The notes under the pieces were generated by a model. That model was not told the origin of the DNA, did no database searches, and was given only the letters and a program-made list of their open reading frames with translations. A stretch of 22,297 bases of DNA from Chthoniobacteraceae bacterium (lineage in GTDB: Bacteria; Verrucomicrobiota; Verrucomicrobiia; Chthoniobacterales; Chthoniobacteraceae): assembly GCA_037190965.1 (NCBI GenBank), contig JBBCKI010000038.1, forward strand, positions 1 through 22,297, given 5' to 3'. The position numbers were made by a program, and so were the translations under genes. Numbering within the stretch: position 1 is the stretch's first letter; the number at the start of each line of letters is the position of its first letter. Shown here in pieces: positions 2,530 to 6,375 of this stretch.

Positions 2530-4608
2530 TCAAACCGCGCCCGCTCCCTCCAGGATCCGCCGTACCGCTGGACGGCGATAAGTGACAACCAGGCGGGCTC
2601 CCGCCCGGGTCAACGCCGAATAAACCAGGCGCGTATTGTCCCGTCGTTGTTCAAGGCGATCCTCGGGTGCCACCCCGAGCGTATCCTCCTTCTCGAAAAT
2701 CGTATCGAGCCCACAAATGAACACCACCGGCCGTTCAACCCCCGGAACCGCATGGATGGAACAGACCCCGACGCATTCATCCGCGCTTCGGGGGTCTCCG
2801 AGGTCCTTCAAATTACGCCCGACCTTGCTCTTCATCACGGCATCGAGCGTCGTGATAAATTCGTTAACGGAGGACCCGTCCGGCAGGATCACAAGGAAAT
2901 GCGCCGGGCGTCTGCCTTTGCGGATGGCCGCAGCGATTTCATTGGCCACCCGGCCCCGCTCGGCCTGCTGGCTGTCGACATGGAGCAACTGCGGAGACTC
3001 GCCGGGAGCCATCGCCGCAAGCACCTCCGGCTCGGGGAGGTTGATCTCTTCGTCATCCTCCGGAAGGCGGCTCCGGTAAAACCGGGCAGCGAAGTGGAGA
3101 ATCGCCTGCGTGTTGCGATAAGCATGGCGGAGCCGCACCGAGTGCCCCCGCATCTCCAGCCCCGAGTACGCCCATGACTGACGCCGCTTCAGGAATCCCT
3201 GTGTGGGGTCCGCGGCGAGGAAAAGCCCTCCATGCCCCGGAGCGAGACACCGGTTCACCAGTCGCAGCCAGACCGGCGCAAAAAACTGAGCCTCATCGAC
3301 GAGAATCAGATCGTAGCTCGGCGGCTGAACCCGCCCCTGCTCCACGCTTCGCCAGACAGAGAGCGCAACGCCTGGCCAGTCATTGAGGCCCTGGCGGTTC
3401 AGGGCGTCCTGATATGTCCGCAGCAAGGCGAAAACCGTGCGCCGCTGCTCCTCGTTTAACGGGCGCACCCGTCCCGCCCTCGCGGCGGCAAGGTATTGCG
3501 CCTCGCGATAGAAGCCCTGATCCCGAATCCAATCGAGTTCATCGAGGAGGAACGGGATCGTCAGCCGTTTCAATGCCTCGCTTCCGGCGATCAGCCTTTG
3601 CACGAGTTCCACGCGTTTCCAGCCCTCGATAATCTTCCACCCCCTCCCCGACACCTTTTGACACCATTGATAAAAGGTAAGCGCCGGATGCCGGTTCCCA
3701 CGGCAGAGCCGGTTAAACCGGTCACGCAGTTCACCCGTGAGTGGGCGGTTATGGGTCAGAATCACGATTCGCGCACTGGGGTGGAGCATGGTGCAGAGCA
3801 TCGCCCTGTAGAGGAGCACTAGGCTCTTTCCGCTTCCAGCCACGCCGGTCACCAGCTTGAGGCGGCGTTCGCCCACTACACCGGCGGCTTCCACAGGGAG
3901 CGCAAGGTCCTCTTTCGCCAGCCACTCCTGGTCGAGGTCGAGCAGGTAGCTCCCGAGGCGCGCGCTCCAGTCTCGATCAGGCTTCTCCTCGCGGGCCACG
4001 AAGGAAGGTGGGATTGTGACCTCGGGGTTAAACCGCTCCCGCAACGTGCGAAGGAGCGCCGGCGGCAACTCCCCGGGACCATTTTCCGGGGCAGCAAGGA
4101 CGCTTGCAAGGGTTTCGGCGCGTAACGCTTCCCTTCCCCATAGCTCATACTCAGCGCACCCCGCCTTTTCTGCCGCTCGCATTCTTTGGGCCACCTGATC
4201 GAGGAGCTCCTGCGGCATGAGGGGGAACGCAACCACGCAACGCAGCGCCAAGCTCGCCGCGACCTGCCGTGCATCCACCCCATCAAGAACCTCCTGACGA
4301 AATTGCCGCAGTTGATCGCGCTCCTTGGCGGCGATCTCTTTTGCGGAAATGGTGCCCCCCGGCGAGGCGAAAAGATCGCCGTGGAGAGCCGTTTCCACCT
4401 CGGCTTCGGTAAGAGGCGATACGGCGAAGAGATGAGCGCTCCGGCCGGAATGAACCGCCATCAGATCGGGCCGCCACTTCTCTGGGGCGATCGGCAGCTT
4501 CAGCCAGACATGGAGGTCGTCGCCGGGAATTCGCCGCAACGCGTGCAGCACCTTCGCCACTTCGGGCGAGATGGTTCCCACCGGCTTGTTTGGATAAAGA
4601 CGCGCCAT
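2530..4608 (-). CDS. UvrD/Rep-like SF1 helicase with an N-terminal degenerate NERD-like domain (692 aa)
   Basis: Motifs: Q (LDLDQ), I (GVAGSGKS), Ia (LTHNRPL), II (DEAQ), III (ADPTQ), IV (YRNT), V (SIHAVPGVE), VI (YSALTRA). The N-terminus MARLYP...SPE..V...L...WRPDLMAVH resembles NERD-helicase fusions. Confidence 0.85.
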   Translation of the reverse strand: MARLYPNKPVGTISPEVAKVLHALRRIPGDDLHVWLKLPIAPEKWRPDLMAVHSGRSAHLFAVSPLTEAEVETALHGDLFASPGGTISAKEIAAKERDQLRQFRQEVLDGVDARQVAASLALRCVVAFPLMPQELLDQVAQRMRAAEKAGCAEYELWGREALRAETLASVLAAPENGPGELPPALLRTLRERFNPEVTIPPSFVAREEKPDRDWSARLGSYLLDLDQEWLAKEDLALPVEAAGVVGERRLKLVTGVAGSGKSLVLLYRAMLCTMLHPSARIVILTHNRPLTGELRDRFNRLCRGNRHPALTFYQWCQKVSGRGWKIIEGWKRVELVQRLIAGSEALKRLTIPFLLDELDWIRDQGFYREAQYLAAARAGRVRPLNEEQRRTVFALLRTYQDALNRQGLNDWPGVALSVWRSVEQGRVQPPSYDLILVDEAQFFAPVWLRLVNRCLAPGHGGLFLAADPTQGFLKRRQSWAYSGLEMRGHSVRLRHAYRNTQAILHFAARFYRSRLPEDDEEINLPEPEVLAAMAPGESPQLLHVDSQQAERGRVANEIAAAIRKGRRPAHFLVILPDGSSVNEFITTLDAVMKSKVGRNLKDLGDPRSADECVGVCSIHAVPGVERPVVFICGLDTIFEKEDTLGVAPEDRLEQRRDNTRLVYSALTRAGARLVVTYRRPAVRRILEGAGAV

Positions 4609-4614
4609 TACCGC

Positions 4615-6375
4615 CTACATCGTGACGAGATGGCATTCCCTGCGCAATGTTTTCCAGAGATCGAGCAGTTCGGCGTGCTCGGGGTCGAACGATTCGAGCC
4701 GGTCGATCTCCGCGCTGGCAAGGAGGATGGTTTTGCTGCGGGCGCGGGTAACGGCAACGTTCAGGCGTTGCGGCTGCAACAGAAACTTCAGCACCATCCG
4801 CAGATAATCAGGCTCCGACGCGGTCATCGAGACAATCACCACCTCCCGTTCCTGCCCCTGCATCCGCTCGACGGTGTCGATGACACATTCAGTAAGATCA
4901 CATAGCTGAATCTCCGTCCGGGCCTTGAGCGAGCGGCGAATCTGCCGCGCCTGCCGCCGGAATGGAACTACGACCGCGACCGAGGAAAGCCCGATGCCGG
5001 AGCGCTTCAGCGCGACCAGGAGATGGGTGGCAACATCGGCCTCATCGCGCGAGGAGCGGCGGGCGGCTCGATGCTCCAGCTCGACCCGCACCAGCGGCGT
5101 CTCCGGGGCGAGCACCTCCCGGAAATCTTCGGGCGACGCCTGGGGGAATGCGAGTCGCCTTCCGGCGTTCCCTTGCGCGGCTTGGAGCCTTCCGCTATAG
5201 AACGCCTCCGCAGGCCATCGGATCAATTCCCGGTTCATTCGGTAGGTTGTATCGAGCATGGTCCGGAAACCGCCGCCCTCCAGCCGCCCAAACACCGATA
5301 TCCCAGGCGCGTCGGCGGGGTCAAATGTCATTGTCACCGGCGGGAGCTGGCGATGGTCACCGATGAATACATAGGCATCCCCGGCGAGCATTGCCATCAC
5401 CGCGAGCGGGAGTGTTACCTGGCTGGCTTCGTCGATGATCACCGCGTCGAACTCCACCCCTTTGAGCCGCTTGCTCCGCGCCGTGAATGGCGTCGCGCCC
5501 ACCACGTAGCCTCCCTGTTCAGAAGCCAGCGGGGAATCGGCAAAGGAATGATACCACGGCACACGGAGATCGGTGTCATGCACCTCCCGCCCGATCTTCA
5601 CGACGCTGCCGATTTCGGGACCCACCCGTACGATCATGTTGAGGGCGTTATGGATGGCGCGGTGCGTCAGCGACGTCACCAGCACCCGTTCGCCCCGGGC
5701 CACGCGCTGCCGCACGATCTGCGCGAGAACATAAGTTTTTCCGGTTCCCGGCGGTCCCTGCACAAGGTGGCAAAGCCGGGTGGCCACTCCCTGCGCGATG
5801 GCCTCACTCTGACTCTCGTTGACCCCCTCTTTTTCAGCGGCTTCCATCGCCTGCTCGAAGGCGGCGATATCAATCGACGGCGTCGACTGCCCGCTCAGGA
5901 GGGGCAGAATCCGCTCCCTACCGCGCGCCGTGGCGCTCAAATCGGCAATCGCCTTTTGGTAGAACGATTCTAGGTCGATGTACGAAGGATCGAGCGCTCG
6001 TTCCCCGATCGCCAATTCTCCCAGGAGGGAGGATACCTCCCGCGTCGGCTCGATCCAGACTTCCTCGTCGTCCACCCGGTAAAGCGTGCCATCAAACTCC
6101 GGCAACCGGGGATCCCCCCGGCTGATCCTCACAAGATCGCCTTCCCGAAGGTCCGAGGAATTCCCGCCCATACACCGGAAATGGAGAAAACGGTCCTTCT
6201 CGCGGGCGACAAACTTCAAACGGGCGATGCACCGGCCCTTGTCCAGCCGCTGGGCCACAGGAAGTTCCCAAAGCGATTCGAACGCCCGCCGCAAGGCCTC
6301 CGACTCGCGCCGCTGCATTTCCGCCAGTTCCTTCTGGAAAACAAGAAGCGTTTCTTCGCTCATGCGGTTCTTCAA
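4615..6375 (-). CDS. Dna2/Upf1-like SF1B helicase (AAA_11/AAA_12 type, 586 aa)
   Basis: Motifs: NESQSEAI, QGPPGTGKT, TSLTHRAIHN, IIDEASQ, GDHRQLPP, YRMN, DTVERMQGQERE, RLNVAVTRAR. The N-terminal stalk/barrel-like segment LW....R...GRCI...LREGD resembles the region preceding the Dna2 helicase core. Confidence 0.9.
   Translation of the reverse strand: MKNRMSEETLLVFQKELAEMQRRESEALRRAFESLWELPVAQRLDKGRCIARLKFVAREKDRFLHFRCMGGNSSDLREGDLVRISRGDPRLPEFDGTLYRVDDEEVWIEPTREVSSLLGELAIGERALDPSYIDLESFYQKAIADLSATARGRERILPLLSGQSTPSIDIAAFEQAMEAAEKEGVNESQSEAIAQGVATRLCHLVQGPPGTGKTYVLAQIVRQRVARGERVLVTSLTHRAIHNALNMIVRVGPEIGSVVKIGREVHDTDLRVPWYHSFADSPLASEQGGYVVGATPFTARSKRLKGVEFDAVIIDEASQVTLPLAVMAMLAGDAYVFIGDHRQLPPVTMTFDPADAPGISVFGRLEGGGFRTMLDTTYRMNRELIRWPAEAFYSGRLQAAQGNAGRRLAFPQASPEDFREVLAPETPLVRVELEHRAARRSSRDEADVATHLLVALKRSGIGLSSVAVVVPFRRQARQIRRSLKARTEIQLCDLTECVIDTVERMQGQEREVVIVSMTASEPDYLRMVLKFLLQPQRLNVAVTRARSKTILLASAEIDRLESFDPEHAELLDLWKTLRRECHLVTM

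Follow-up and report, generated by a model that had tools for sequence, protein, structure and literature searches.

What can two helicases achieve together when neither brings along a working nuclease? The question is raised by two neighbouring genes, here called helA and helB, within the first 22,297 nucleotides of contig JBBCKI010000038.1 from a Chthoniobacteraceae bacterium of the phylum Verrucomicrobiota (assembly GCA_037190965.1); this whole stretch is referred to as the window. An earlier inspection of the DNA letters alone (the sequence-only reading) had proposed that the genes form a stand-alone module of two superfamily 1 (SF1) helicases of opposite polarity, possibly a dual motor in antiphage defence or repair. 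Our analysis shows that the pair is a conserved, patchily spread two-gene unit that occurs in at least three phyla and on plasmids. It combines a DNA2-type helicase (HelA) with a UvrD-family protein (HelB), and it is probably linked to defence.

The pair is a conserved two-gene unit

The HelB loci compared here are a sample, taken among the matches listed in a genome scan, and not a census. At 27 of the 29 assessable loci outside the window, helA was found directly upstream of helB in the same order, which is far above chance, and accidental adjacency was rejected; three HelB loci at contig starts were left unjudged. The paired loci span Verrucomicrobiota, Chloroflexota, Proteobacteria and Vibrio plasmids, and the gaps between the two genes mostly range from -4 to +8 nt (16 nt at one locus). 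No third conserved gene was found beside the pair, and no flanking gene was common beyond close kin. The stand-alone character of the module noted by the sequence-only reading was thus borne out, as was the conservation that it had supposed. A single protein record of 1263 aa, located on a single contig (P0382), has a full HelA fused to HelB; as the only instance it could be an assembly error.

Strong matches to both proteins occurred in 4 of 301 genomes sampled from the same phylum, adjacent in all of them, and the pair was present in 2 of 201 genomes from the family of Massilia, one of which was the centre of the sample. For the class of an Anaerolineales genome, strong HelA matches were obtained in 6 of 251 genomes, with HelB beside HelA in three (two known beforehand). 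None of five congeners of the host has the pair. When metagenomes were scanned with the HelA profile, L034 and L035 were the only close relatives among the 80 loci listed. No HelB relative was among 600 pattern matches in viral contigs, phage records yielded one distant HelA-like match, and a low-sensitivity search of E. coli genomes with a Vibrio copy as DNA query gave no match.

Broken copies occur in four other genomes or plasmids (L129, L130, L136 and L221): helA lies in two frames in G007, G006 has a truncated helB without helA, G027 retains adjacent remnants of helA and helB after a deletion, and a Vibrio plasmid carries a shortened helB.

Phylogenetically, the 23 paired HelAs formed a clade (support 0.905) to which none of the three solo HelAs belonged. 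The HelA and HelB trees agreed with each other (Mantel r 0.84, 0/2000 permutations; supported splits shared 11/15 and 10/12), as is expected anyway for linked genes.

HelA, HelB and their predicted complex

HelA is a helicase of the DNA2 type in which all motor motifs are present and a nuclease domain is absent. Apart from Pfam matches to AAA_11/AAA_12, its family profile aligned with residues 451-1020 of the 1056 residues of mouse DNA2, from the stalk through both RecA domains (E 6e-62). The alignment starts with DNA2 residue 451 at profile position 21, and the first 450 residues of DNA2, where its nuclease sits, have no counterpart. An AlphaFold2 (AF2) model of HelA (mean predicted local distance difference test, pLDDT, 94.9) gave DNA2 (5ean) as best Foldseek match (TMq 0.72), followed by IGHMBP2 and Upf1 (TMq range 0.70-0.78), and the window copy showed no deviation at 123 columns conserved among 120 homologues. 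Judging from its family, HelA would move in the 5'-3' direction. It shares its stalk-OB-SF1B motor architecture with DNA2 and Bad, the latter being sporadic among bacteria and moving 5'-3' according to the available text of PMC7430649. Unlike these, HelA lacks the N-terminal iron-sulphur (Fe-S) PD-(D/E)xK nuclease in its chain, and a dead domain of the PD-(D/E)xK fold is found on the second helicase, from where it is predicted to dock on HelA.

Solo relatives of HelA were found in Anaerolineae (L177:4383-6143, L178:3001-4875 and L179:1134-2864), one between RecJ and a PD-(D/E)XK gene, one behind a PDDEXK_3 gene and the third before a 725-aa gene without a Pfam or PADLOC match. In a separate clade, nuclease-less DNA2-like helicases are each located behind a DUF2075/SLFN-g3 helicase (L051:6475-11752, L052:5213-9101 and L058:989-4675), directly at two loci and at a distance of one gene at the other, where a MazG-like gene follows. 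This is a second pairing of such a motor with another SF1 helicase.

HelB is UvrD-like in its C-terminal 450 residues (Pfam UvrD-helicase/UvrD_C), with UvrD, PcrA and Rep as best Foldseek matches. Its fold also matched AddB (Z 25.8, root-mean-square deviation 4.9, 398 aligned residues), tied with Rep and SLFN11, as well as HelD (Z 20-22). In a tree of 150 proteins built on the helicase columns (600-900 aa only, shorter and longer ones excluded), the window copy and all 21 included paired loci fell into one clade of 123 proteins (FastTree support 0.844), and all five solo loci into its sister group of 22. HelB possesses the ATP-binding motifs Q, I, II, IV and VI of active SF1A helicases, and the 123 proteins of the paired clade retain the Walker A Lys (123), the Walker B Asp (123) and Glu (120), the motif III Gln (122), the motif IV Arg (122), the motif V Glu (121) and the motif VI Arg (121). 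Four other residues are changed: the last Asp of DEXQD is Phe in 114 of the 123 proteins, the motif III Tyr is Leu or Met in 119, the motif V Lys is Thr in 110, and the motif V His has mostly given way to Asn, Asp or Glu and is outside the five commonest residues of its column. The sister group keeps all four. By alignment, they are equivalent to D224, Y254, H560 and K563 of E. coli UvrD, which we take to have roles in DNA contact and coupling. The residues that it retains suggest that HelB is ATPase-competent, and its DNA-coupling motifs are changed family-wide; its polarity would be that of its family. Because of this family-level change, the bipolar twin motor envisaged by the sequence-only reading was not borne out. 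In AdnB, loss of a motif III aromatic leaves the ATPase intact and abolishes translocation, as stated in the accessible part of PMC8789073. The sister group likewise lacks the motif III Trp of AdnB, and the HelB clade has new invariant aromatics (F442, F472 and W479), which suggests a DNA channel that is remodelled and not necessarily dead.

A Pfam scan of HelB returned no NERD match. In Atlas, residues 1-200 were nearest to NERD clusters (score 0.95, 194/256 features), and the sister clade of HelB includes Pfam-NERD-positive proteins. Fold searches with the complete protein did not single out its N-terminal part, and BLASTP of the HelB N-terminus against one solo NERD aligned only 37 residues, so that the NERD call is based on Atlas, the tree and the motif table. 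The E-x-K of active NERDs, part of their catalytic D...E-x-K set, was found in 0 of 123 proteins of the paired clade compared to 17 of 22 sister proteins, and it is also missing from the HelB copies of the Vibrio plasmids examined. As far as this motif indicates, catalytic loss maps exactly onto the paired clade. Of the name NERD-UvrD used in the sequence-only reading, the NERD-like fold before a UvrD-type motor stands, whereas Pfam recognizes no NERD and the nuclease implied by the name is unsupported because the E-x-K is replaced throughout the paired clade. The domain would offer a clear example from nature of an enzymatic domain converted to an adaptor, with an intact sister clade as control.

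For complex prediction, HelA 8-586 and HelB 1-245 were each given as an alignment. The pair scored 0.84 and the best control 0.00, relative to a mark attained by 116 of 157 solved pairs and by 2 of 215 mismatched ones, counts that are only approximate for our own alignments. The runs had at least 34% of contacts in common, with a partner pLDDT of at least 66. In the predicted interface, HelB 1-26 (together with residues 36, 65-69, 130-132 and 163-164) meets HelA 165-203 and 367-372. The HelA patch has a median net charge of -5 in the 23 paired proteins, compared to 0 in the 3 solo and the 13 distant ones, in a test that was made after the model had been seen; the docking helix of HelB is basic in solo as well as in paired proteins. 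The structure and profile matches included no solved complex of the two families. In DNA2, however, a nuclease from this superfamily lies against a motor of the same type, so that some memory in the prediction is possible. The model predicts that the dead NERD of HelB docks on the first RecA domain of HelA, in line with the complex supposed by the sequence-only reading.

The NERD-like domain also includes a loop reminiscent of beta-clamp-binding motifs. In 136 aligned sequences this loop has Gln in 38%, His in 36%, Leu in 89% and Phe in 86%, with variable flanks, and 21 of 121 clade members carry the strict Gln-type motif here, compared to none of 22 sister proteins (background 0.002 per scanned segment). 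The clamp consensus is Q-phi-x-[LM]-[FL], where Gln raises affinity and is not essential, according to the accessible text of PMC11139829. Since the C-terminus of the host MutS is a canonical clamp motif, the His variant of the window copy would be a weak clamp binder. The loop Phe may be an inherited structural residue, and it is possible, if somewhat doubtful, that the loop really binds the clamp. A host UvrD-family protein of 1050 aa (G000:C28:3024-6173) ends in a canonical clamp-binding pentapeptide.

Genomic context and possible role

At 8 of 19 loci, a clear defence or toxin-antitoxin family lies no more than three genes away from the pair, while clear cases numbered 2 among 20 control stretches (Fisher p 0.03); three more loci and one control had ambiguous defence neighbours (p 0.008 with the ambiguous loci included). 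The eight loci carry DUF5615; Cas1/2/6; AbiEii; a PDC-S37/Hhe-like helicase; MazE-PIN; type I restriction-modification (RM); YhcG and HNH; and McrBC and HNH. Two of the 19 scored loci are congeners. For the control stretches the E-value cut-off was stricter, and the eight clear loci pass this one too. Among 72,556 plasmid records, tblastn detected the pair on four from Vibrio, and three of these four were examined in detail. On the V. coralliilyticus plasmid it is located between Gabija (GajA 721, GajB 884 bits) and Septu (PtuA 493, PtuB 311 bits), with a HelB shortened to 596 aa. On the V. parahaemolyticus plasmid, an integrase, an HTH gene, a VapE-like gene and an HNH gene resembling type IV restriction endonucleases precede the pair, with an Abi gene further on, and on the V. 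nigripulchritudo plasmid RelE/ParE and HipA genes are near it. These loci agree with the link to defence islands that the sequence-only reading had anticipated.

The first part of the 57-kb V. parahaemolyticus plasmid record (L219:1-15156) appears to be a phage-satellite-like element with defence cargo.

Several observations weigh against a role in defence or against a fixed pairing. No clear defence neighbour was present at 11 of the 19 loci, and the window itself has none and is no defence island; with the window counted (8/20), Fisher p rises to 0.065. The defence labels were set after the scan, when the hits had already been seen, and the controls came from only five genomes, half of them from that of the window, with three positions moved by hand against overlap. 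Three Massilia loci have common housekeeping flanks, which fits vertical descent, and the GC content at third codon positions (GC3) of helA (0.75) and helB (0.72) equals the genome median (0.73), so that the window copy is no recent arrival. At 5 of 114 conserved columns the window HelB deviates (median 1). Two of the 29 helB loci are without helA, G006, where helB is truncated, and G026, an assembly of 710 contigs; helA was sought in both genomes and not found. A motif for clamp binding would suit host repair just as well. Finally, no effector is visible, so that how the pair would stop a phage has to be inferred. In favour of defence, the host has two UvrD/PcrA-size genes, other UvrD-family genes and, by size and adjacency, a likely RecB-RecD pair. 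No LexA-type box was found at helA, while the host genome has six perfect Verrucomicrobia-type boxes (reversed control 0), and no perfect box was found near helA in 26 loci. Between defence and repair, the genomic evidence leans to defence.

Among the closest known systems are the solo NERD-UvrD proteins, represented by the PADLOC C3a187 model, which is the best PADLOC match of HelB (101 bits), and by the NERD-helicase of Tiamat type I-G. They have the same domain order and belong to the sister clade of HelB. However, they keep E-x-K, DEAQD and H-x-x-K and are without HelA at 5/5 loci, whereas HelB lost those motifs and gained a partner. The GHL ATPase-nuclease partner of Tiamat type I-G is not conserved beside the pair, and a Sacsin/TmtA-like gene was near it at 1 of 19 loci only. 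RecBCD, AddAB and AdnAB are likewise heteromers of SF1 motors or motor-like subunits, with AddB resembling HelB in fold, but are active nucleases with a housekeeping role, and to our knowledge none of them joins a UvrD-type to an Upf1/DNA2-type subunit. In contrast to these, HelA and HelB both end at the second RecA domain and lack a C-terminal RecB-family nuclease. RecB binds the beta clamp, according to the available part of 10.1101/2025.08.20.671105.

Gabija is also a two-gene defence unit in which, by the accessible text of PMC10781630, the UvrD-like subunit has a regulatory role; its partner GajA is an OLD-family nuclease, whereas that of HelB is a second helicase. GajB models matched HelB with at most 32 bits, neither protein matched GajA, and no OLD-family ATPase-Toprim protein was conserved as neighbour. 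Nhi and Mokosh employ SF1 helicases in anti-phage defence as well, and Nhi has been proposed to attack replication intermediates (available text of 10.1101/776245). Nhi, however, is one protein with an active nuclease and a DUF2075 helicase, neither of which the pair has, and the MkoA models of Mokosh (1112-1607 positions) match only the C-terminal helicase stretch of HelA (model positions 772-1078 of 1112); no Mokosh PLD component was among the neighbours of the pair. Membership of Gabija, Mokosh, Nhi, Tiamat or PLuB was rejected. As the sequence-only reading had surmised, the pair had no match to a named system: PADLOC 2.0 gave only partial helicase-domain matches, those in NCBIfam (June 2026) were partial and all below cut-off, and the literature search found no description of it, while paper supplements, which lay outside that search, may list it as a candidate. 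The parts belong to known families, and their nuclease-free union is undescribed as far as the searches reach. The helicases of the defence systems compared (Gabija, Nhi, Tiamat I-G and Mokosh) serve a nuclease. The pair lacks both possible nucleases, that of DNA2 and that of NERD, and yet is kept tight across phyla and in defence islands.

The reading that we favour, with confidence a shade below even for the mechanism in full, is that HelA and HelB form a heterodimer that probably protects against phages or other invading DNA without a nuclease of its own. HelA would be the working 5'-3' motor, and HelB an ATP-dependent sensor and loader that guides HelA onto replication intermediates, with the sliding clamp as a possible route. 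The complex might unwind nascent strands or strip proteins from invader forks, and invader replication would stall as a result. A narrower version, in which a machine free of nuclease and toxin uses the docking NERD and a clamp hook to find clamp-loaded invader forks and dismantles them mechanically, we regard as unlikely. If the pair protects, motor activity alone would be an effector. With two genes of 3.8 kb, and specific mutants offered by the predicted interface, the ATP sites and the clamp-like loop, this is directly testable.

Alternatively, the pair may serve accessory genome maintenance, in which a clamp-riding heterodimer would support UvrD and RecBCD, without being essential, by remodelling stalled forks, flaps or R-loops of the host chromosome. 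Such a role would suit DNA2 as closest solved relative of HelA, a clamp-like loop restricted to the paired clade, the lack of clear defence neighbours at 11 of 19 loci, RNase H and RecD2 genes next to single loci, and the agreement of the two trees (Mantel r 0.84), which linked genes show anyway. We consider it unlikely, as the pair is rare, patchy, often broken and plasmid-borne among defence systems, has no LexA-type box, and its host already has ordinary UvrD-family genes. The family-wide change of the UvrD D224, Y254, H560 and K563 equivalents, retained by the sister clade, and the precedent of AdnB (PMC8789073, as far as available) make it quite unlikely that the pair is a true bipolar twin motor, similar to RecB plus RecD without the nuclease, whose two subunits translocate on opposite strands and unwind phage DNA from an end in defence; moreover, unwinding without cutting requires a downstream effector. 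In its favour, the HelB clade keeps Walker A/B and the motif IV and motif VI Arg, its new invariant aromatics could rebuild the DNA channel, and a heterodimer is predicted.

Very unlikely, in our view, is a helper module that feeds single-stranded DNA to an available nuclease (HNH, McrBC, type I RM, Cas4-like or RecJ/RecBCD) and protects only with it. The pair has an HNH gene next to it at L034, L132 and L219, L017 has a DUF2779/Cas4-like gene in that place and L031 type I RM, solo HelA relatives lie beside RecJ or PD-(D/E)XK nucleases, and Tiamat I-G is predicted to use its NERD-helicase likewise (accessible part of 10.64898/2026.09.30.754977); no nuclease family, however, is conserved beside the pair, and none is nearby in the window, L019, L023, L025, L131 and others. 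Highly improbable is an RNA-directed machine that would abort transcription or translation, with HelA working on transcripts or the ribosome in the manner of Upf1, IGHMBP2 or Sen1, and HelB engaging RNA polymerase as HelD does. In fold, HelA is about equally close to IGHMBP2, Upf1 and DNA2 (TMq 0.70-0.78), HelB matches HelD (Z 20-22), and CoCoNuTs join UPF1-like helicases to inactivated PD-(D/E)xK folds with predicted RNA targeting (available text of PMC11090510), but the HelA sequence follows DNA2 over its full length, stalk and OB included, and no RNase neighbour is conserved. Two further candidates were rejected, a split Dna2 accompanied by a nuclease gene next door, an arrangement present at 1 of 19 loci, and a replacement for the housekeeping UvrD.

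Locus layout and other arrangements

The range covered by the pair, the co-orientation of its genes and the junction TAG-GCGGTA-ATG are as the sequence-only reading had given them, with both genes on the minus strand (Table 1), and the intact Walker A, Walker B and motif VI that it noted were found in HelA and HelB alike. The short gap suggests translational coupling.

Table 1 Features of the helA-helB pair and their positions in the window
Feature	Position	Strand	Description
helA	4615-6375	minus	586 aa from TTG start; 582 aa from ATG at 6363
helA-helB spacer	4609-4614	minus	6 nt between helA stop and helB start
helB	2530-4608	minus	692 aa
HelA			SF1B helicase of the DNA2/Upf1 family, with a stalk helix, an OB barrel and two RecA domains; no nuclease/Fe-S domain
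HelA 165-203	5767-5883	minus	Predicted HelB-docking surface (interface list); acidic in paired HelAs
HelB			UvrD-family SF1A-type ATPase (by motifs) behind N-terminal NERD-like domain, judged nuclease-dead
HelB 1-26, basic helix	4531-4608	minus	Predicted HelA-docking surface (interface list); median net charge +2
NERD-like domain	4009-4608	minus	HelB ~residues 1-200; judged catalytically inactivated (Atlas clusters, motif count)
FAVSP, HelB 61-65	4414-4428	minus	At site of E-V-K in active NERDs
HGDLF loop, HelB 76-80	4369-4383	minus	Beta-clamp-binding-like; family [QH]-G-[SD]-L-F; window copy has His, not Gln
HelB motif V, altered	2734-2760	minus	Family (N/D)-x-x-T-G-L-E vs UvrD H-x-x-K-G-L-E; window copy has H and P there

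Upstream of helA, on the opposite strand, lies an FGE-sulfatase gene (Pfam E 3e-84), and downstream of helB a pilin-like gene (N_methyl E 0.017, below cut-off); with this reservation for the pilin match, Pfam agrees with the unrelated flanks described earlier. The host genome has one copy each of helA and helB, and the nearest named homologues of the pair are from Chthoniobacteraceae and other Verrucomicrobiota. No sigma-70 consensus was found upstream of helA, and repeats and terminal structures around the pair were at chance level only. Mapping of sequencing reads listed no difference within helA or helB, where the best run may itself be the source of the assembly. Behind helB, positions 1610-2529 form an AT-richer gap of 920 nt with no convincing open reading frame; its minus strand has two sigma-70 sites close to consensus (2352-2325 and 1690-1663).

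Elsewhere, the pair is part of a long co-oriented run (L132:3-18598) with a Sacsin/TmtA-like ATPase, an SNF2 helicase and another UvrD-like helicase that has a different N-terminal domain; the run continues into HNH and McrBC. In three protein records (P0381, P0383 and P0025), HelB is located behind a region of about 670 aa (two records) or before an S24 peptidase domain (one record), the former region being an S-adenosylmethionine (SAM)-dependent methyltransferase according to one source. At L034 (7658-9979), a methyltransferase-S24 gene precedes the pair.

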